Part shown: positions 3,549 through 53,043 of the stretch, piece after piece | Layout of the letters: every line of letters starts with the position of its first letter | Numbering within the stretch: the stretch's first letter is position 1 | Virus record (IMG/VR): IMGVR_UViG_3300033144_003384 | Span: 1 to 64,000 of that record | From: a virus | DNA length: 64,000 nt | Direction: 5' to 3' (one strand) | Translations under genes and position numbers: made by a program | The notes under the pieces: model-generated | Seen by the model: the letters and a program-made list of their open reading frames with translations, nothing else | Databases searched by the model: none | What the model was told of the DNA's origin: nothing

Positions 3549-3753
3549 GCGAGAGCGTGTGGGTCATCGGATATCACAACACCATCATCGAGCACGGCTA
3601 CGAAATAGCGGGCATCTTTTCGAATAGATCAATTGCGAAAGTGGCTGGCGATATGGTAAAGGAACACTTCGCAGGTGTTTTCGTTGCTCCCGCCGAGCTG
3701 GACACCTTCATCCCGGCAATAGCCGACGAGTATTGGGGCGGCCTCGAATGGTT

Positions 3754-8668: not shown

Positions 8669-9457
8669 CCCCGTTTGGGTCGTTTTTTGGCGGGGCTCCC
8701 CCAGGGAACGTGCAAGTTGATCGTGGTGTGGAGGGACTCTGACAAGAGTGTGATCTGAAGTAGTTTAAAGATTAGGAAAGAGTTGGTTCAGAACCAAGAA
8801 CTCTAGTTGATTCTGAATTCACTTTGAGCCTTTGGACTTACTCTATAGAGAATGAGTAGTGGACTCTACAGGGCGTAAAGCCCCACAGCTCCGTCGGGTA
8901 TAGCAATGCTTGCCCTTGATGGGGTTGTGAGGCTTGGAAGATGCGCACTTCGTTTGTCCGTTTCGGACTGTAGTACGTGGGTGTTGCTAATGCAAGCAGG
9001 TCGACATCATTTGACGTCTGGGTTGCCCATTGCTTGGTTCATCATGGTGTCGAGCCTTTTGAGGAATGCCCGTTCTTCGTCAGTTTTGGATGCGAGCCAT
9101 TCTTCCTTTGTCGGCTCGACTACGATGCGTGTCAGTTTGGTGGTGCCGTCGTCGTATTCGATTTCGATGTAGCGAATCTTGCTCATGTCGTGATCCTGAC
9201 TTCGCCTTCGTGGCTTTGCGAGATGTAGTTGCAATTCAGGCTTGCGTCGGAGATGAACCGGAGCCCGCAACTGGAGTCCCAGCATTCCTTCAGTTCGTTG
9301 ATGGGGAAGAAGTCGTACCCGTAGCCTTCTAATTGGTCGCGGGATTCTTGGTCGGTCACGATGTAGAGCTTGTGGCACCCGTCCCAGGCGAACTCGTCTG
9401 CCCAAATCCTGGTGTCGTTTATCTCTACCGTCTGTCGCTTTTGGTGTTCCCTTACTT

Positions 9458-10254: not shown

Positions 10255-10540
10255 ATTGTCCCTTCCTTTCTTTATCTATTGTAACACGTAAGAGCCTGAA
10301 AGTCAAGCCCTATTTAGATGGTCTTGGACTGCTTCCAGATATCCCGTTGCCGCTGCGTCTGCGTTGTCCAACACCAAGGTGAGCCCAATTGAGGCCAAGG
10401 CGTCGAGGACGTCGGGGCCACTGATCTGCTCCATCTCCAAAATCTCGAAGTTGAAGTAGCTGGCAAATGCTTCTGCGTATTCCTTTGTCCCTAACATGTG
10501 TTCTCCTTTCAAGAAAACAAAGTGGGGGGAACCCCGGCTT

Positions 10541-20651: not shown

Positions 20652-20731
20652 TGGTGGAGCTGGCGGGAATCGAACCCGCTTCCAGACATTTGCACTTCGG
20701 CATTTCAGTCTGTCGAAACCATTACAGCCCC
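20652..20731 (-). ncRNA. ssrA: Mini-tmRNA: tRNA-like domain only, 80 nt, no tag ORF
   Basis: GGGGCTG TAATGGTTTCGA CAGAC [20 nt] GTCTG GAA GCGGG TTCGATT CCCGC CAGCTCC ACCA; G3-U70 pair, tmRNA-type D-loop, P2a, T-arm and encoded CCA. Confidence 0.85.
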
Positions 20732-20732
20732 T

Positions 20733-20812
20733 TGGTGCCAACCTGCGGAATTGAACCGCAGCCCCTTTCCCGATATCACTCGGGGGTTACCTTGGGTGTT
20801 TATCCCGTTGGC
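20733..20812 (-). ncRNA. Atypical tRNA-like RNA (acceptor stem, T-arm and ACCA; no canonical anticodon arm)
   Basis: GCCAAC...CTGCGG TTCAATT CCGCAG GTTGGC ACCA; internal CCCGA-GTGATA-TCGGG has a 6-nt loop. Confidence 0.7.
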
Positions 20813-40736: not shown

Positions 40737-42415
40737 AAGGCATTCCTCCGTGGGCTGACGGAGTTTTCGATCGCTTCAAGGGTGTTAAGACTTCCGGCAA
40801 CGGCTGGTCGGTCATATGTCCTGCTCACCCAGATTCACACCCGTCTATGTCGATCTCTATTGGTACCGATGGTGACAAGCTGATTTTCAATTGTCATCGT
40901 GGCTGCGCTGTTGACGATATTGTGAAGTCTGCCGGACTTGAAATGAAGGACTTGTGGAAGCCGGGCTCGTCTCGCGACCGGAAGAAAAAAGAGTGGATAG
41001 CCAATTACGACTATACCGACGCTGAGGGCAATTTGATCTTTCAGGTAACCCGCTGGATCGAGGGCGACGGTCGTAAAACGTTCACGCAACGCAAGCCGAC
41101 GAAGGCTGGTGGCTGGGAATATTCGACTACGGGTTTGAAGAAGCCGATTTACAGGTATCCGCAGATCAAGTCCGCTATTGAGCAAGGTCTCCCGATCTAT
41201 GTTGCCGAGGGTGAGAAGGACGTTGCAACGTTGGTGACTGCTGGGGTACAGGCAACTTGCAACCCAGGCGGTGCCGGGTCGTGGCAAGCAAATCACACGA
41301 AAGCTTTAGCTAAGGCGTCTCAGGTGTTTATTGTGCCTGACCGTGATGCTGTAGGCATGTCTCACGCAGCTCACATCAAGGGCGAATTAGAAGACCTAGA
41401 TGTTGAGGTTCACGTTGTTGGTCCCCCTGAGGGTAACAAGGATGTGACGTGGTTCTTTGAGAACGCTGGCGGTTCGCTGGCTGGTCTTGTGAGCATTGAG
41501 CTGTCGGCAGAGAATCAGGACCCGTTTGTTGACATCTTGACAGAGCTTCGCAGCTTGTCTAAACAGAACATGGCGTTTGAGAAGAAGCTGCACCGTGCCC
41601 GCTCAATGCTTGATATTGCAGAGTTCGACCCTACGGATTATGGGCGGCTGGTGAAGTGGGAAGATTTCCTAAAAGAGGGAGTCGATGATTACGATTGGGT
41701 AATTCCGGGGTTGTTGGAACGGCAGGAACGCGTTATTGTGGTTGCTGCGGAGGGTGTCGGCAAGACGATGCTTGCGCGGCAAGTTGCACTAATGTCGTCT
41801 GCTGGCATTTCCCCGTTTCGTAAGGATTCGATGCCGAAGGTTGCGACGCTGTTTGTTGATTTGGAAAACCCTGAGCGGATCATTAAGCGTACGTCTGCGA
41901 AGATTTTGGAGCGCATTCGTTGGGTCAAGCCTGACGTTGGTCCGCTGGATGCTCACCTTCTGGTGAAGCCAGATGGCTTGGATTTGCTAAAGTCTGAGGA
42001 TCGTGTCCTGTTGGAGCGCATTGTTGCCCAAACTGAGCCCGACATTATCTTCCTCGGTCCGCTGTATAAGGCAATGGTTGATCCGGGTGGCCGTACTGCT
42101 GAGGCTGTGACGACTGAGGTTGCAAAGTTCTTCGACTATATCAGGGATCAGTACAACTGTGCTTGGTGGTTAGAGCATCACGCTCCTTTGGGTTCGTCGG
42201 ATTCTGGTCGTCCGCTTCGTCCGTTTGGTTCGTCGGTGTGGTCTCGTTGGTCGGAGTTTGGTATCGCGCTGGCTCCCGATCCGATGATTCACCATAGGTT
42301 TGAAGTGAAGCACTATCGTGGCCAACGTGATGAGCGAGAGTGGCCTGCTGCGTTGGTGCGTGGCGATATTTGGCCGTTTGAGGCTGAATGGGTTGACAGT
42401 CACGGCACGATTTAG
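40733..42415 (+). CDS. DNA primase-helicase (Zn finger, TOPRIM, AAA_25/RepA-like)
   Basis: CPAH.D..PS...CHRGC; AEGEKD; PDRDAVG; AAEGVGKT; LEHH; RPFGSS. Confidence 0.9.
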   Translation: MKGIPPWADGVFDRFKGVKTSGNGWSVICPAHPDSHPSMSISIGTDGDKLIFNCHRGCAVDDIVKSAGLEMKDLWKPGSSRDRKKKEWIANYDYTDAEGNLIFQVTRWIEGDGRKTFTQRKPTKAGGWEYSTTGLKKPIYRYPQIKSAIEQGLPIYVAEGEKDVATLVTAGVQATCNPGGAGSWQANHTKALAKASQVFIVPDRDAVGMSHAAHIKGELEDLDVEVHVVGPPEGNKDVTWFFENAGGSLAGLVSIELSAENQDPFVDILTELRSLSKQNMAFEKKLHRARSMLDIAEFDPTDYGRLVKWEDFLKEGVDDYDWVIPGLLERQERVIVVAAEGVGKTMLARQVALMSSAGISPFRKDSMPKVATLFVDLENPERIIKRTSAKILERIRWVKPDVGPLDAHLLVKPDGLDLLKSEDRVLLERIVAQTEPDIIFLGPLYKAMVDPGGRTAEAVTTEVAKFFDYIRDQYNCAWWLEHHAPLGSSDSGRPLRPFGSSVWSRWSEFGIALAPDPMIHHRFEVKHYRGQRDEREWPAALVRGDIWPFEAEWVDSHGTI

Positions 42416-42427
42416 TATCCTTGCAGC

Positions 42428-42524
42428 AGGAGAGGCTCCTGACAAAGCCCAAGGCCCCGGATGCGTGTCCCCCCCGCAGGCATTCTGCGGCCGCCCCTTC
42501 TATCCTGTCAGGGGTCTCTTCTTC
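42428..42524 (+). ncRNA. Candidate ~97-nt sRNA: multibranch fold with C-rich linkers
   Basis: TTGACA(42393)-17-TATCCT(42416); closing stem AGGAGAGGCTCCTGACA/TGTCAGGGGTCTCTTCT with G-U pairs on the plus strand. Confidence 0.65.
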
Positions 42525-42594
42525 TGTCTTGACTTGTCTTGCCGAGTTGCTATAATGAACTCCTGTAAGGCTCTAGACGATTAGGAGTTAGCCG

Positions 42595-43137: not shown

Positions 43138-43857
43138 ATGAGAAGGTATTTGCTATTAGGGGCAGCGATCTTGGCGATAGTCGTATCGACTTTGCCCGTG
43201 TTGGCTGCGACCACGGAAGAATGCCGGGGATACAGCAACCACAGTGGGGAAATTCCCGGTCGTTATGACGTTGCTTACTTCTTTGAAAATGGTCACAACA
43301 ACAATGAGTGGATCGGCCCTATCGTCGTTCCGGATGGTGGGCTGAGCTATCCGCCACCTACCGGACGTAGGTCGTGGGACACAGTCAAAAAGTGCTACGT
43401 CACGGTGACAACCACGACCACCACCGAACCGCCAACTACGACGACGACGGTGTCGGACACGACCACCACCGAACCGCCAACCACTACGACGACAGAACCA
43501 CCGACAACCACAACAACAGTGCCGAACACAACAACTACAACGGTGCCGGACACAACAACAACAACAACAACAGTGCCGAACACAACTACGACGACGGAAT
43601 CGCCAACGACCACAACAGTTCCCGATACGACCACAACGACAGACCCGCCAGCGACTACCACAACGATTCTTCCCGAGAAATGTGATGACGGTCTTGTTGT
43701 GAACGCCAACGGGGAGTGCGAACTCCCGGCAACAGGTTCGCCAGACATGAGCCTTTGGGCAGGGGTCGGCATGGTTGCCCTTTTGGTTGGAATATTGCTT
43801 CTAGCCTTGGGACGCAACAGGAGACTCAGCGAACAAGAACGGGTTGACATTACGTAA
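43138..43857 (+). CDS. Thr-rich sortase-anchored (LPXTG) surface protein
   Basis: Signal peptide (VLA-AT), Thr/Pro stalk, LPATG, hydrophobic helix, RNRR tail. Confidence 0.85.
   Translation: MRRYLLLGAAILAIVVSTLPVLAATTEECRGYSNHSGEIPGRYDVAYFFENGHNNNEWIGPIVVPDGGLSYPPPTGRRSWDTVKKCYVTVTTTTTTEPPTTTTTVSDTTTTEPPTTTTTEPPTTTTTVPNTTTTTVPDTTTTTTTVPNTTTTTESPTTTTVPDTTTTTDPPATTTTILPEKCDDGLVVNANGECELPATGSPDMSLWAGVGMVALLVGILLLALGRNRRLSEQERVDIT
43400..43665 (+). repeat. Coding Thr-rich tandem repeats (TTTTEPP / TTTTVP[DN])
   Basis: ACN codon runs within the LPXTG gene. Confidence 0.9.
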
Positions 43858-43878
43858 CTTGCTTGCTATGCTAGAGAC

Positions 43879-43968
43879 AAGCACCTAACGGTGTGGGTGA
43901 GTCCCAGTGACTGATCCTCCTTTCTCGGAAGCGGAGGGGCCTTAGCGGGCCCCTTCTTCCGTTCCGGG
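43879..43968 (+). ncRNA. Candidate ~90-nt sRNA with exposed anti-SD GATCCTCCTTTCT
   Basis: TTGACA(43844)-17-TATGCT(43867); hairpins GCACC/GGTGT and TGGG/CCA-type, long 3' hairpin; no convincing ORF. Confidence 0.65.
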
Positions 43969-43993
43969 GTATTTACGGCTAGACTGCACGATT

Positions 43994-47143: not shown

Positions 47144-48850
47144 CGCTAGGAGGTGGCGGATTTGTTGGGGCTTCGGCCTCAGCTTTTCCGTCTCCTTTTC
47201 CGTTTCGGGATAGCTGGCTTGAGGTCTTCGTGACGGTAGAACCTGCTGCGTCCGTCGTTGTCTAGTAATTGGTATCCAGTTAGCGCACCGTCTTTTTCGA
47301 TGAAGCGCATGATGGTCATGATGCGATTGCTTCCGTCTTTTGCTTTGACCTTGTCCCCCGGTACGAACGTGTTCATGAACACCACCCTACCATAGTGTCA
47401 AGGAATTGTCAAGCCGTTCGGTTCTTCGGGAACATCAGCGGGTTCGTAATTGAGGACGAATCCGGCACGCTCCATCGTCTCCATAGCTTCGGCCAGTTCT
47501 TCCTCTGTTGGGGGGCTCCCGAGTTCCAGAAGCTCGTCCATGGTTTTCAGTACGTCATCGACCTTGTCGCTGACTTCTTCAAGTAAGCCTTTCACATCTG
47601 CTGGCGTTGTGGTGATCCTCAGCCAGTTCAAGATTGGGCTCCTTGCGAACTTCAGGATTATGGCGAGGGCAGCAAGCAGGGCGGCTACGGTGACGAGCCC
47701 GCTTGATAGCGAGTTTAGGAGTTCCATTTGCGCAAGCCTTTCCAGTGGGTTATCAAGCTTCTTGGCCGAATTCGGTGAGGGCTCCGCCGAGCCCATGGGC
47801 TGAATCAAGGTGCAGGATGTACAGGTCTGCGACAATCTCCCACATAGCCGCTACGTCTTCCCTGACTTCGTGTTTCGATACGATTTCTCCGCATCCGATG
47901 TATTCCTCGATGGAGCCGTTTGTTCTTTCGATTGCTATGCGTTCGCCTGCTTCGCATCGCAAGGTAACCGTGCTGCCTGCCGTGACCGGAAAGGAACTTT
48001 CGTACTCCTTGGCCATTGTGTCGCGGATGTAATTGATCTCTTCTCTGGTCAAACTCATCGTATTAACAGGCTAGCCGCAGGGATTGCAACCGAGGCTTAC
48101 TTGCCTGCGAGTTTCCTAACTTGAGTTCCGCCAAGCACAACCATCGCTGATTGAACTTTCGGTCGCCCCCCAACCATGCGCGCTTCGATGGTTACACTTT
48201 CTTGAGTAATCTCAAGGGCGGATGCGAGACGAGCCCTTACATCGGACGTATAGGACATGAGAGTAGCCTCTTCGTTGATTTCCACGGTGTTGTCCCTGTC
48301 ATAGGAACATAGGCCACAGCCAATCTTCTTGCCTGGAGCTTTTCTCTTACGCAATTCCAGATGACCGCACTCCATCCAGTGCTCCCACCAGACATCGGGA
48401 TAGCCGCCAGTTCTGACGATATCGACGACTCTACGCTTTGGCGCGTGTCTTCGTGTCAAGATATTCCTCCGCGCTTTCGATGGCGTCGTAGAGGTTTTGT
48501 GACCATGGCGACATCAAGGTTTCCGACCAAGGCGTTCCGATCCAATCCGGGTATTCGACCGGGTTGCCAGAAAGGATTTGCTTTGTCGTAGGGGGAGGCG
48601 CTGCGACAACCATCTCTTGGTAGAGGGCGAGAGCTTTTTTCTGAAGTTCGTGCTGTTCGTCGACCCATTCGAAATCTCGGTCATGCGGTTCGCCTTCGAC
48701 CTTCAACATGGCACGCAACCCTGGCGAACCTTGTGGGGGAAGCCAACTTGGGTCGTCTTGATATGCCAGGAGAGCAATCATTAGTTCATCTGGCAGATGT
48801 CGGTCGGTCATAGTTTCTTTCCGGCTGAGTTCATGCTATTACCATAGCTC

Positions 48851-48963
48851 GGGTGAGGCCGCTTCGGAAGGGTTTCCCTTCCTCTTCCCTGTCCAGCCGG
48901 GGTGGCCAGAGCGAAGGGTCTGGGGTGTAGCGTTTCCTCCTTTCCGCTGCATCCCAGGCTCTT
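48851..48963 (+). ncRNA. Candidate two-hairpin sRNA (6C/cuckoo-like) with anti-SD loops
   Basis: Hairpin 1 48857-48907 loop TTTCCCTTCCTCTT; hairpin 2 48914-48963, 19 bp, loop TTTCCTCCTTTC; -10 TACCAT at 48840. Confidence 0.75.
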
Positions 48964-49483
48964 ACTTATCGGGAGTCTTGGGGCGCTCAATCTGGATGCG
49001 CTCAACCTCCCCCTTCGTTTCCACAGGAACCCATGCTTGACTATATTTGTGTTCTTTCATCTTTTTGCGCTTCAGCAAGTCGCCTTCAGCTAGCACCTGG
49101 AATTCGTCCACAGTCATATTGAGGATCATGCGCAGTTCGTCTGTGCTGTACTTTTTGCTGCGCACTACACGCTTGATGAGTCGGGATAGGTCTTTCGCCA
49201 CTATCTGTCCTCGTCCGCGGTTGAGCTGTACGTGCTTCAACATGGCATTGATCTCTGGGCCACACAGCCACACAACAGGTATAGGAAGGATCGACGGTTC
49301 GTCTTGCGCTATAAGCCACCGCGCATATCCGTCAATGATGTAGCCGTCCTCATGGGCCACGATTGGCGCAAGCCATCCGGCTTTTAGCGAGGCCGTCAAT
49401 ACCTTCAAGTCTGGTCGAAGAATATGGGTAGTTCTCCAGGGGGCTGGTTTTAGGTTCTCTGGCTGCACATATTCAATGTTCAT
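48962..49483 (-). CDS. IbrB-like ParB/Srx-domain protein
   Basis: LKPAPW...GWLAPIV...IIDGYARW...HVQLNRGRG. Confidence 0.8.
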   Translation of the reverse strand: MNIEYVQPENLKPAPWRTTHILRPDLKVLTASLKAGWLAPIVAHEDGYIIDGYARWLIAQDEPSILPIPVVWLCGPEINAMLKHVQLNRGRGQIVAKDLSRLIKRVVRSKKYSTDELRMILNMTVDEFQVLAEGDLLKRKKMKEHKYSQAWVPVETKGEVERIQIERPKTPDK

Positions 49484-49804
49484 TCCGATTCCTTCAACCA
49501 TCCGCAGTTCTTGCAATACTCGCCACCTGAGACGAGTTCGTTCGACATGTCAATCCATTCGTGTTCTGAGCAATCATCGAGGACGAGGTGACGTTTAGTG
49601 GAGTCGATTGCTGCCCACAGTTCGTATGACTTTTTGCACACAAGGTGAGTACACAGCTCATACACGTCACAGACCATTCCAACGGAATACTGGCCTAGCT
49701 CGATCACGTTCAGTAAGGCTGTGATGGACTCGTTATTGGGGTCGATTCCTTCTTTGTCCCATAGCGGATCGTCGTAGGTTGCCGAAAAGCGAACGGGTTT
49801 CTTT

Positions 49805-50200
49805 TTACTTCTCTTGAAGCCCATAGGTTCCTTCATAATCTACATAAACGAGATGCGGGATGCGTTTCGTTGCGAGCAGCTTGATCATGCCTTTTGTGCC
49901 GTGGCTTTCTCCGTCCCACAGGACGAACGCGAAGTCGGGCGGGACGTTCACCATTTCGTTGTTGCGAATATGTCCTGCCTTTTTGCCGTACTTATTCCAG
50001 TCGGCTGGCATGTACAAAATCTCATGCTTGTGGGAAAGGGCCCAGTGCTCGCCCGAAGTGTCTACGCCCCCGGCTGTGCCGGAGATGATTACGTGTTGCG
50101 TGTAGAGACGCTGTTCGGAGTCTAACGACCCGAGGGCGTGGTCGATTAGGCGCACTGGTGCGTATCGGTTTCGGCTGCCTGCGATAAGGAATCTTGCCAT
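49805..50200 (-). CDS. SLOG / YspA-like (DUF2493) protein
   Basis: IAGSR, IISG.A.GVD, PADW.KYGKKAG.IRN.EM, WDGES.GT..MI. Confidence 0.9.
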   Translation of the reverse strand: MARFLIAGSRNRYAPVRLIDHALGSLDSEQRLYTQHVIISGTAGGVDTSGEHWALSHKHEILYMPADWNKYGKKAGHIRNNEMVNVPPDFAFVLWDGESHGTKGMIKLLATKRIPHLVYVDYEGTYGLQEK

Positions 50201-50251
50201 AGCCAAACCCTACCCGATCGTCAAGGAAATGTCAACACGTACGGTAGTGTT

Positions 50252-51415
50252 CTATACGGTATCGTCGAGGAGGTCCATGTTGTTGGCATCCATGACCTCC
50301 TGGTGAGCGACACGCATTGTGTTCGCCCTTGTCTTGGGGCCGACCGGGGTAGGGGATGACACGAAAAACTCATTCAGCAACAGTGTTCGAATCAAATGAT
50401 CCAGTGGGTACGAATACGGGTCTGTGACGTGTTTCTTGCGGTACTTCGACACGAATACCTTCGCCCCTTTCTGTAGGCCAGGGGTCAACATATTCTCTTC
50501 AATGCACATCTTCACGCCATCCCATCCGAATGATCCGTACGTTTCGATGAGGGCCTGGACGTCAAACTCCCCCCACAGTCTGCGCTGTGCGTCGATCTGG
50601 GGGAACGCCGTAACGAGCCTGTCGTAGAACTCCGGTTCCGTAACAACAACGTCGTTGAGCCTGCGCGCAGCGATTGAGTGCAACGGAATTCCGACCCTTG
50701 GATTTGCTGTCGTCATATCGGCGTAGTCGTAGAAGGCACAGTAGTCGGCACCGTGTTCGTCAATGATGAATTTCATGACGTCATCCGACGTCCAGTCGTA
50801 GATGATTTTGGCAAACCTGAGCGGTACGGCTTTCGACATCCGATATGGGCGATTGATGTAGTTCTCGTGGAGCTTCTGTGTCACGGACCTGTATCGGATC
50901 ATCGACTCGTTGGCGCGTACCCCCGTGATGAAGGCGGTCATGCCCTCTTTGCCCTGCATCGTGTAGTAGTCCACGGATTTCGGAACAGGCTTGTTGCGAT
51001 CAAGCCCAAAGTCGGATGCCATGATGGCCCCCTCTGGGATTGGCCGGACAAGGCGGCCTTCGGCTTCTCTCTGCGCTGACCACAGCAGAACGTACTCTCG
51101 CCTGCCAAGCACCCAAACTTCTTGCCCCATTGGGAGGCAATACCATTCGAGGTCGATCCAGCTATAATCACGTACACGTTCAATGAAGTCGATTACGGAA
51201 GGCGAAACCATTTCTTCGTCTCGGAAGATGACCTTGACTGGCCCCAGCCCGCGTTCTTCGTGTATCTCTTTGGCAAGATAGATAACAGCAGTGGAGTCTT
51301 TGCCGCCAGAGAATTGGACAGCAACGGTGTCGAATGTGTCGTAGACGTGCCGGATGCGTTCCCGAGCAGCCTTTAGGACGTTTGTGTGGTCCAGGAATAG
51401 CCGTTTCCGAGCCAT
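50252..51415 (-). CDS. IbrA-like PAPS-reductase-family protein
   Basis: NV..AARERI...FD...V.FSGGKDS, F.DEE, GVRANES..R, IYDW...DV. Confidence 0.88.
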   Translation of the reverse strand: MARKRLFLDHTNVLKAARERIRHVYDTFDTVAVQFSGGKDSTAVIYLAKEIHEERGLGPVKVIFRDEEMVSPSVIDFIERVRDYSWIDLEWYCLPMGQEVWVLGRREYVLLWSAQREAEGRLVRPIPEGAIMASDFGLDRNKPVPKSVDYYTMQGKEGMTAFITGVRANESMIRYRSVTQKLHENYINRPYRMSKAVPLRFAKIIYDWTSDDVMKFIIDEHGADYCAFYDYADMTTANPRVGIPLHSIAARRLNDVVVTEPEFYDRLVTAFPQIDAQRRLWGEFDVQALIETYGSFGWDGVKMCIEENMLTPGLQKGAKVFVSKYRKKHVTDPYSYPLDHLIRTLLLNEFFVSSPTPVGPKTRANTMRVAHQEVMDANNMDLLDDTV

Positions 51416-51927
51416 TCTTTACCGTCCTTGACATATACCACGGGTTGTTCGTGGTCCTTTAGGTCTATGGCAATATCCCTCAAGATGGTTTCCCAGAACT
51501 TTTCGTGATCCCCAAAGTCGGGGTCGTCGGGGATATAACTGATCCCGATGCTGCACGGTTCTTTAGTCCAACCCAAAATCTTATCATCGTCGTCGACGTA
51601 GATTTCGTGAAGGTTGTCGTCGTGCCAGGTGCTGCTTTCGGTTTCCGTGATGTTGCGAACGATTCCGTAACGCCAACGCATCAGAGTCCTTCCGGTACGT
51701 GCATGATGGACGGGGTGCCCTCTCCTGCCCATAAGCATTCGATGTTATGTCCGTAATAGTCCAAGGCTTCCTCGTAGGACTGGCCTTCGTTGATCAAGAT
51801 AGTAATGATCTTCTCGTAAGAGTATACCACACGAGTTGGCTGCGTATGGGTGTGCGCAATTCCAAGAATAGCGTCGTCGAGCCCGTCGAAAACGATTAGC
51901 TCTTCTTCGGATATGTTTGCGTATTCG

Positions 51928-52680
51928 TCAATCTGTTCGCGAATTCCCACCGAATATCTCCTTTTCCAGATACGCAACAAGTTGCGCTCCTGTTGTGTTG
52001 CCCGGATAGTCGTCGCTTCTTGCCTTTAGCCACCGAATAAAGTCGTACCAGCGTGCCTGGTGGTTTTGGGATTCAAAGACGAGCGTGTATTGTACGAGGT
52101 GTCTCTTCGATCCGGACAGTCCAGCGGCAGTAGAGCCAGACGTGACTAGGTCTTTCTCCATGTCTTTGTCTCCGGTAAAGTGGAGCTGTTCGTCATCTTC
52201 GCTGATGAGTTCGGGCGGTTGCCATCCGACGTTCGCTGGCGAAGGCTCCGGGTTGAGGACTGGCTCCATGGCCGCCATCTCATATTCGTCCCAAGCTAAT
52301 GCCTCGAATACGTCTCCGTATTCTTCAAAATGCTGTTCTAGCATCTCGTACACAATGTTGGTGTCGATGGTTCCGAGTTCTGATGTACGGTTGTCGGCTA
52401 AGGCATATGCGGCGGCTTTGCTGTCGTCGAAAGGAACCCTGGTGGCTGCTATGTGCGTCCAGCCTAGTTTGATTGCACCCTTCAAAGAGGTATTTCCGGC
52501 AATGACGGTGAGGCCCCCGTCGGTGTCCTCGACCACCACGACGGGTTTGGTCTGTCCGAATCTGTCATAGGATGCGGCAACCGCGTCAACGTCACCATGC
52601 CTGGGGTTGATCGGCAACAGCTTGATTGTGTTGATTGGCGTGATTAGCGATAGCAGGTCTTCGTGGATTTTGTGCTTCAT
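51928..52680 (-). CDS. ParB N-terminal domain protein
   Basis: NPRHGDV..VA.S..RFGQ.KP.VV...VIAGN...LGW...A.ALADNRTSEL. Confidence 0.88.
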   Translation of the reverse strand: MKHKIHEDLLSLITPINTIKLLPINPRHGDVDAVAASYDRFGQTKPVVVVEDTDGGLTVIAGNTSLKGAIKLGWTHIAATRVPFDDSKAAAYALADNRTSELGTIDTNIVYEMLEQHFEEYGDVFEALAWDEYEMAAMEPVLNPEPSPANVGWQPPELISEDDEQLHFTGDKDMEKDLVTSGSTAAGLSGSKRHLVQYTLVFESQNHQARWYDFIRWLKARSDDYPGNTTGAQLVAYLEKEIFGGNSRTD

Positions 52681-53043
52681 AGCTTTTTCGTTATGCATGT
52701 GCAGCAGCGCCATTCGATAAGCTTTCTACCCGCTGGAGCGTAGTCAAAGACAACTTCAACCCATTCGCCACAGCTAAAGCACTGAAACTCGCCGTTCTCG
52801 TTCATACTGTGCTCGACCAGCCTTCGTCTTCGATGAGGCCCGGACACCAACTACCAACATAGTCTTCCTGAAAGTGGCCCAAAGCTTCTGTGTCAGAATG
52901 TTCGCAAAGCCAGTACATTTTCTCTGGTTCGCCGAGTGCTATGAGGACAGCTTCTTTGAAGTCTTCGCCAGCAATTGTCTCACCGTTTTTCCACCGTTCG
53001 AAGTCTTTTCCAAACAGATGCCTAGCACCTCTGTTGTAATTGA

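Follow-up and report, generated by a model that had tools for sequence, protein, structure and literature searches.

A long-stemmed hairpin with an anti-Shine-Dalgarno loop, antisense to an operon of an actinophage-like virus: a candidate small RNA and its rivals

Does the 150-nt non-coding gap at 48812-48961 of the IMG/VR virus record IMGVR_UViG_3300033144_003384, situated within a run of minus-strand genes, specify a small RNA (sRNA) on its plus strand, or does it serve the genes of the minus strand? The record is linear and comprises 83,756 nt (CheckV completeness of 56%); its first 64 kb form the stretch analyzed here, referred to as the window. A first-pass annotation had proposed two hairpins with open anti-Shine-Dalgarno (anti-SD) loops in this gap, acting as a repressor of messages led by a Shine-Dalgarno (SD) sequence. 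Both the location in the gap and the antisense orientation of the plus-strand element to the surrounding operon could be reproduced, as could the second hairpin (hairpin 2) and its loop, whereas the first hairpin could not. The element is one exceptional hairpin after an unremarkable G+C-rich stretch. Our leading, still tentative reading is a plus-strand sRNA of ~115 nt, the loop of which would mask GAAAGGAGG-type ribosome sites.

Hairpin 2 has a stem of 19 uninterrupted pairs (48914-48932 with 48945-48963). All of its non-Watson-Crick positions (4 of the 19: 48917.48960, 48919.48958, 48925.48952, and 48928.48949) are G.U when the plus strand is folded, and turn into A.C mismatches when the minus strand is. 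Folding of the 50-mer yielded -31.6 kcal/mol on the plus strand (z -7.26, 0/200 shuffles) and -15.9 kcal/mol on the minus strand (z -2.16, 6/200 shuffles). Of the two stems described earlier as having G-U pairs that form only on the plus strand, hairpin 2 is confirmed; hairpin 1 is not supported and is not significantly structured. The entire stretch from 48851 to 48970 folds at -59.4 kcal/mol, and 48851-48963 reached a z-score of -3.6 on the plus strand compared to -1.3 on the minus strand. Stability alone is not decisive, because random first-order Markov (Markov-1) genomes reach 19-pair stems and comparable energies: 19 pairs are the longest stem in the real 83.8-kb genome and were reached in 2 of 40 Markov-1 genomes (G.U allowed), and the best 60-nt windows of five such genomes ranged from -30.1 to -34.5 kcal/mol. 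Among all 60-nt windows of the genome (both strands), hairpin 2 ranks sixth, and the others at this level are mostly ordinary terminators.

The 12-nt loop TTTCCTCCTTTC (48933-48944) is open: its unpaired probability is 0.99-1.0 when the plus strand is folded, and the minus-strand fold likewise leaves it unpaired (about 1.0). Its motif UUUCCUCCUUUC contains the anti-SD core and is exactly complementary to the GAAAGGAGG ribosome sites of the phage; the predicted duplex with GAAAGGAGG has -13.4 kcal/mol. The 9-mer CCTCCTTTC occurs six times in the window, always on the plus strand, compared to 0.51 copies expected (both strands, 64 kb), and none of 100 shuffles reached six. Four of the six copies (13987, 14764, 24770, and 29451) follow canonical promoters and precede minus-strand ATGs by 4-11 nt, and these are the very ribosome sites to which the first-pass annotation had declared the loop complementary. 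The only other copy outside a ribosome site (43916) is also on the plus strand and belongs to a unit that has a canonical promoter and a canonical terminator. As also noted earlier, the variant TCCCTTCC is present at 10259; with four matches versus 2.39 expected, a number reached by 23/100 shuffles, it is not enriched.

What decides that the hairpin is more than chance is the conjunction of a 19-pair stem, a non-coding gap, and a loop with the phage's own 9-mer, because no other stem longer than 11 pairs displays CCTCC or GGAGG in its loop and because the 9-mer is over-represented. The 11-pair stem was the next-longest with such a motif in a 7-16-nt loop, in 84 kb of the phage's own DNA and 740 kb of related loci. 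Exact matches to the 18-mer and the 16-mer around the loop were found at 7 and 35 IMG/VR loci, respectively, all of them unrelated and nearly all ordinary ribosome sites; the longest stem flanking any of these comprised eight pairs.

On which strand would the hairpin act? The plus strand is favored because the imperfect pairs are all G.U there, the folding energy is twofold better, base and tail are terminator-like, a -10 element is well placed, and the 43916 copy of the 9-mer is likewise on the plus strand. In base and tail, hairpin 2 is similar to other terminators of this phage (AAGGG...CUCUU followed by a tail with U residues), and the tail following it on the plus strand, TTACTTAT, holds 5 T in 8 positions only when the two terminal A-U pairs are discounted. 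The corresponding minus-strand tail, CGCTCTGG, is not T-rich, and an intrinsic terminator of the ParB operon on the minus strand was ruled out on account of this tail and the weaker stem with its four A.C mismatches.

A possible start of the plus-strand RNA is offered by two overlapping hexamers, TACCAT (plus) and TATGGT (minus). The -11A and -7T of both hexamers coincide reciprocally and the predicted starts are 18 bp apart, which is the sequence geometry of a bidirectional promoter. Between TACCAT and the foot of the structure lie 6 nt, as they do between its mirror TATGGT and an ATG; a TTGACA -35 element is present on neither side. Passages of PMC10268837 give 18 bp as the commonest start spacing and layout of bacterial bidirectional promoters. 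The phage site resembles the promoters of Warman et al. 2021, as cited in PMC10268837, in its overlapping TAnnnT hexamers, the reciprocal -11A/-7T, and a divergent RNA that would be non-coding and antisense; unlike those mapped promoters, its hexamers are weak, neither a -35 nor an extended TG is present, and the starts are predicted only. For Mycobacterium tuberculosis, passages of PMC3898074 describe a bare TANNNT without -35 as the main promoter determinant, carried by 76% of antisense starts, with a mapped start at about a fifth of TANNNT copies. As a promoter of the plus-strand RNA, the symmetric -10 is suggestive only.

Taken at face value, the sRNA would start near 48852 from the divergent side of this weak symmetric -10-only promoter (TACCAT/TATGGT) and would end at its own 19-pair hairpin with a modest U-containing tail. 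Its loop UUUCCUCCUUUC would pair with the GAAAGGAGG sites of the phage's promoter-proximal accessory genes, or with host sites, and the pairing would block 30S binding while sparing the many leaderless mRNAs of the phage. In the whole genome, 37 near-identical promoters of the type TTGAC(A)-N16-18-TAnnnT were found (30 with a 17-nt spacer). Twelve of these are of the leaderless type, in which an ATG or GTG follows the -10 at a distance of 5-8 nt, and others are followed by GAAAGGAGG-type ribosome sites. The minus-strand accessory gene block at 8-30 kb uses sites of the latter type. The coordinates of all features of the locus are collected in Table 1.

Table 1. Features in and around the gap (positions refer to the window).
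Feature	Position	Strand	Remarks
Hairpin 2	48914..48963	+	19-pair stem, 12-nt loop; terminator-like on plus
Anti-SD loop UUUCCUCCUUUC	48933..48944	+	12 nt; minus strand reads GAAAGGAGGAAA
Putative ~115-nt RNA	48852..48970	+	predicted start to T-rich tail; both ends predicted
Domain 1	48857..48907	+	outer stem 48857-62/48902-07 around palindromic hairpin and single-stranded C/U-rich UCUU (48883-86)
Symmetric bare -10	48840..48846		TACCAT 48840-45 (+, predicted start 48852); TATGGT 48846-41 (-, predicted start 48834)
Mini open reading frame MNSAGKKL	48808..48834	-	8 codons; TGA overlaps ATG of 126-aa gene (ATGA)
126-aa gene, downstream of gap	48431..48811	-	no known family
ParB-like (IbrB-like) gene, 184 aa	48962..49516	-	phrog_2159, E 6.5e-23
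Canonical leaderless promoter TTGACA-17-TAGGGT	50207..50235	-	promoter of the operon running through the gap

A number of results weigh against an sRNA of this kind. To begin with the structure, the second C/U-rich motif is sequestered, and the tandem-loop design of known anti-SD sRNAs is absent. The first-pass annotation had described TTTCCCTTCCTCTT as an open loop 1; in the minimum-energy fold, GGAAGGG (48866-72) pairs with CCCUUCC (48876-82) in seven pairs closed by a UUU loop (48866-48882), so that the motif has an unpaired probability of only 0.03-0.06, i.e., is 94-97% paired. The two-loop structure is 4.5 kcal/mol worse (-21.9 vs. -26.4 kcal/mol), and compared to shuffles domain 1 is not significantly structured on either strand (plus z -1.79, 9/200; minus z -0.97, 35/200). 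Since loop 1 is sequestered, the element is not a two-loop display. The palindromic ATGCTATTACCATAGCTC has no second copy in the genome at up to three mismatches.

As for transcription signals, none of the 37 canonical promoters lies within 1 kb of the element on either strand. The best local plus-strand score of a position weight matrix (PWM) was 4.7 (rank 213 of 167,442 positions), and the PWM gave -1.6 for TACCAT (plus) and -2.5 for TATGGT (minus), compared to ~20 in the uppermost 0.01% of positions (99.99th percentile 20.3), the range of the training promoters; a bare TAnnnT is expected by chance about once per 64 nt. Hairpin 2 was not called by the terminator scan, because the scan admits loops of 3-8 nt only and the 12-nt loop is outside this usual range. 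A reading by eye of upstream regions for late or alternative promoter motifs revealed nothing usable, and the combined terminator and promoter scan of 44.5-64 kb had a yield equal to shuffle expectation. As for the targets, GGAGG by itself shows no enrichment in the window (126 copies vs. 137.6 expected), and strong SD sites are rare (at least six matching bases at 12 of 148 crude phage gene starts). In 32/35 other IMG/VR loci, the 16-mer around the loop simply serves as a ribosome site of the opposite strand, according to our reading of their contexts.

Relatives of the element were not found either. A blastn search of 1,201 nt against 50,697 phage records returned no match. The ParB-like protein has 23 relatives at 36-62% identity; used alone it retrieved no locus from IMG/VR, and an alignment of the 23 ParB-like proteins was used to gather 160 loci (80 viral and 80 metagenomic, 915 kb). 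Among the 158 of these with enough downstream DNA, none carries the element after the ParB gene. A single-sequence covariance model recovered only itself in the window and the 915 kb of loci (best other hit 8.5 bits, E 6.5), only itself in the whole 83.8-kb genome, and nothing in three whole related viral records. With no homolog, there is no covariation to draw on. Paralogs were likewise absent, as blastn-short of the gap against the genome gave nothing above 11 exact bases, or above 14 with one mismatch. A search of genome contigs with the ParB-like alignment found no relative. The repressor mechanism of the first-pass annotation is still the leading one, carried by strand asymmetry, the exposed loop, and exact complementarity, but it is weakened because the first motif is sequestered, a canonical promoter is missing, and relatives are lacking.

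The related loci do show what normally follows the ParB gene. Their gaps are mostly 40-65 nt long (range 19-65) and hold a -10, a ribosome site, and ATGCC. An extended -10 (TGnTAnnnT) is present on the gene strand in 54/68 distinct gaps; shuffling predicts ~5, and the opposite strand has 5. A predicted promoter at the post-ParB junction is therefore the family norm. Against this background, the element looks like an insertion of ~100 nt between the ParB stop and the junction promoter. In a subgroup of the loci (L033, L039, L040, L046-L048, and L066), the GGAGG of the next gene lies in the loop of an 11-pair hairpin (e.g., L039 ~3550-3600). On the gene strand, this hairpin includes 4-5 G.U pairs, and its 3' arm contains the start codon.

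Membership in the 6C or cuckoo families, which the first-pass annotation had cited as established examples of such loops, was not supported by covariance searches. At Rfam gathering thresholds, only a tmRNA-like (transfer-messenger RNA) stretch elsewhere in the window was detected; 6C was absent at the gathering threshold and also at E-values up to 10 with queries of 601 nt and 146 nt. Permissive scans with the same two queries returned generic microRNA-precursor hairpins and CcsR1 at 12.9 bits (E 0.63-2.6, cut-off 65.3). Membership in 6C was rejected for want of a model match and for having only loop 2 open where two exposed C-rich loops are required; membership in cuckoo/CcsR (RF02791) was rejected as the score is far below 65.3 bits and there is one open loop, with the motif UUUCCUCCUUUC. 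By analogy, the element may at most work like these families.

Passages of PMC4615179 describe the cuckoo family as two to four adjacent hairpins, each with CCUCCUCCC. The phage element resembles cuckoo/CcsR1-4 (RSs0680) of Alphaproteobacteria (RF02791, PMC4615179) in a CCUCC-type loop, a variable G+C-rich stem, and the proposed occlusion of ribosome sites; unlike them, it has one open loop, is present in single copy, and probably belongs to an actinobacterial host. With the 6C sRNA of Actinobacteria (PMC6486639), it likely shares the host phylum, and chaperone-free mRNA binding via C-rich loops is the feature of 6C that invites the comparison. In contrast to 6C, the phage loop is U/C-mixed with a CCUCC core and lacks a C-run, the second loop is closed, and the element is phage-encoded and antisense within an operon. 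In Staphylococcus aureus, the 3' hairpins of RNAIII and the RsaE/RoxS-type sRNAs pair with SD regions through C-rich loops. In RNAIII, a loop of this kind sits on the terminator hairpin, which would also be the case for hairpin 2. The phage element differs from RNAIII, RsaE, and RoxS in its sequence, host, and genomic surroundings. A phage-encoded anti-SD sRNA was not found in the literature searched, supplements being outside the scope.

The main rival to the plus-strand sRNA, which we consider rather unlikely, assigns the function to the gene strand. The loop of the operon mRNA, reading GAAAGGAGGAAA and located ~125 nt before the next start, would serve as a stabilizer of the STAB-SD type, in that a bound 30S subunit would shield cistrons further downstream from 5'-to-3' decay, perhaps once the long stem has been cleaved. 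Otherwise it would serve as a ribosome decoy or as a standby site. The minus strand commends itself because the element is inside an operon, because the exposed SD lacks a start codon as in STAB-SD, and because of the 16-mer, which is a working ribosome site in this orientation at 32/35 other IMG/VR loci. Transcription of the minus-strand copy is almost certain, provided that the promoter at 50235 is active and that no terminator intervenes, because this canonical promoter (50235-50207) stands at the head of the operon in which the gap lies. On the gene strand, the loop is a perfect ribosome-binding sequence and fully unpaired, with no ATG, GTG, or TTG in the next 19 nt, i.e., within the 3' arm. 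Each of the phage's four GAAAGGAGG ribosome sites likewise belongs to the minus strand, and some relatives display the ribosome site of the post-ParB gene in a gene-strand hairpin loop.

Precedents for such an element exist. In the cry3A mRNA of Bacillus thuringiensis, a STAB-SD near -129 is not a translation start, binds the 16S 3' end, and blocks RNase J1, according to passages of PMC4113751, and a polypurine stabilizer is reported for mycobacteria in passages of PMC2358910. The gene strand of the phage resembles the cry3A case in having a strong SD without a reading frame ~125 nt before the next start; unlike STAB-SD, which is near the 5' end and needs no long hairpin, the phage site forms the loop of a stem with far better pairing on the other strand. 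The letters of STAB-SD are presumably the same 9-mer. A polypurine stabilizer was reportedly also described by Hue and colleagues in 1995 and is said to originate from phage SP82.

What tells against the gene strand is the stem, which there has four A.C mismatches and half the energy (-15.9 kcal/mol). If selection acted on this strand, the chance that all four mismatches turn out as plus-strand G.U pairs would be small, by our own estimate about (2/10)^4 for random mismatch types and about 1/16 for random transitions. In addition, distances of 125 nt and 65 nt are too large for direct ribosome delivery, and the element is not conserved in relatives.

If the plus strand were transcribed, hairpin 2 might simply be a terminator or insulator that stops divergent or pervasive antisense transcription into the ParB-like gene, with a functionless product and a loop that is incidental or serves the other strand. 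The plus-only G.U pairs, the terminator-like base and tail, and the symmetric -10 situated 70 nt upstream agree with this explanation, which we nevertheless regard as improbable: it does not explain why a 12-nt loop should consist of pyrimidines throughout and complement the phage's ribosome-site 9-mer (0.51 expected) exactly, it gives the 50-nt first domain no role, and the phage's other strong terminators have loops of 4-5 nt.

A little less credible still is an element acting at the DNA level, i.e., a site for a protein or on single-stranded DNA (ParB-like binding, replication priming, packaging), or the relic of a lost promoter-ribosome-site-gene cassette. The element adjoins the ParB-like gene, its gap is ~100 nt longer than in relatives, as if inserted, it is GC-richer than its surroundings (0.62 vs. 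0.52), and G.T pairs are tolerated in single-stranded DNA hairpins. In duplex DNA, however, the arms are complementary at 15/19 positions only, and neither the arms nor any 12-mer or longer recur in the genome; a relic would not retain a 19-pair stem around the motif, and no start codon or remnant of a reading frame fits.

Translation of the gap itself is very improbable. A 65-codon open reading frame (ORF; 48808..49005, TTG start in the ParB gene) is open across the whole gap and has an ATGA overlap with the next gene, and a 37-codon ORF covers 48839..48952; the only start of the former is 44 nt inside the conserved ParB-like C-terminus with GGAGG abutting the TTG, its product would be of low complexity (rich in R, P, G, and S), and the relatives' gaps of 19-65 nt leave no room for it. 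A toxin-antitoxin pair, a retron, CRISPR, IS200/IS605 ends, a CsrA sponge, and read-through or frameshifting of the ParB gene were dropped, as no neighboring gene, repeat, or motif supports them.

Should the plus-strand RNA exist and mask ribosome sites, it would be a phage-encoded general repressor of SD-led translation and, given the many leaderless phage mRNAs, an RNA-only way to time early genes or to shut off the host. T4 RegB, which cuts ribosome-binding sites, is comparable in aim. The anti-SD-loop design of cuckoo, 6C, and RNAIII would thereby be extended to actinophage-like viruses. If the gene-strand explanation were true instead, the locus would be a phage example of a ribosome-site decoy or stabilizer inside an operon. 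Under either reading, the hairpin is real and unusual, has a meaningful loop, and is a singleton without relatives.

With regard to the genomic setting, the host of the phage is likely actinobacterial, because the nearest cultured relatives of its primase-helicase are actinophages: the protein is ~30% identical to those of Arthrobacter, Microbacterium, Gordonia, Curtobacterium, and Streptomyces phages, and 144 of the 165 matching records belong to actinophages by our count of the genera named in the organism tally. The stop codon of the ParB-like gene shares the last two bases of hairpin 2. Upstream of this gene follow a SLOG-domain gene and a PAPS-reductase-like gene, and the operon-like run at 48962-52713 (minus), comprising the ParB-like, YspA/SLOG-domain (PF10686), and PAPS-reductase-like (phrog_2302, E 1.4e-73) genes, has the composition of an IbrA/IbrB-like module. 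The protein of the 126-aa gene has a single homolog (P0026, 65% identity) among 5.8 billion proteins, and the gene has no relative in IMG/VR. P0026 is encoded on a contig of 2,010 nt, and the ParB-like protein P0002 (62% identity) on one of 22,406 nt; these two contigs are the likeliest places for a homolog of the element. Within the neighborhood of the gap, contigs of a single DNA run cover only 47500-47535 and 49496-49893.

The ATG of the mini-ORF stands 6 nt after TATGGT, which is the phage's leaderless geometry. It may be a leaderless coupling ORF, or its placement may be due to chance, because TAnnnT-N6-ATG is not enriched genome-wide (23 observed vs. 19 expected).

Two further stretches of the plus strand are sRNA candidates. 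The unit containing the 43916 copy (43844-43975) combines a canonical TTGACA-17-TATGCT promoter, a non-coding part of ~97 nt (-45.6 kcal/mol, z -3.31), and a canonical terminator, and includes UCCUCCUUUCU, which is partly single-stranded. Judged by these signals, it is a much better supported candidate for an sRNA gene than the hairpin element. The other stretch, 42393-42530, begins with a TTGACA-17-TATCCT promoter, located where the primase-helicase gene ends, and continues with a candidate RNA of 103 nt (-47 kcal/mol, z -4.24, 0/200 shuffles). A long stem containing G.U pairs closes this RNA, and seven consecutive C are found at its apex. The three candidates (48852-48970, 43844-43975, and 42393-42530) do not align with each other.

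A more speculative idea, to which we give little credence, is that the plus-strand RNAs (48852-48970; 43844-43975 with the same UCCUCCUUUC; perhaps 42393-42530) mimic the anti-SD tail and jointly re-aim host translation. They would soak up SD-led mRNAs of the host and of the early accessory phage genes, and the leaderless operons (12/37 promoters) would still be translated. In a bolder variant, the exposed tail mimic would be a decoy substrate for host defense nucleases that cut the anti-SD region of 16S rRNA, as a mycobacterial MazF toxin does.

Regarding other structured RNAs of the window, the tmRNA-like stretch detected by Rfam comprises 80 nt at 20652-20731 (minus) and scored 71.9 bits (cut-off 47), matching only the two ends of the model. 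It amounts to a tRNA-like domain ending in CCA, without a message part. ARAGORN called no tRNA or tmRNA in the window, and an exact 32-mer of the stretch had no match in genome contigs. Just upstream, at 20735-20775 (minus), lies a second T-arm/acceptor-like piece that also ends in CCA. Finally, 8876-8935 (plus) ranks second in stability among the 60-nt windows of the genome (-35.3 kcal/mol). It is a long hairpin with imperfect pairing that includes G.U pairs, lies in a 338-nt gap between convergent genes, and does not conform to the short-loop terminator type.

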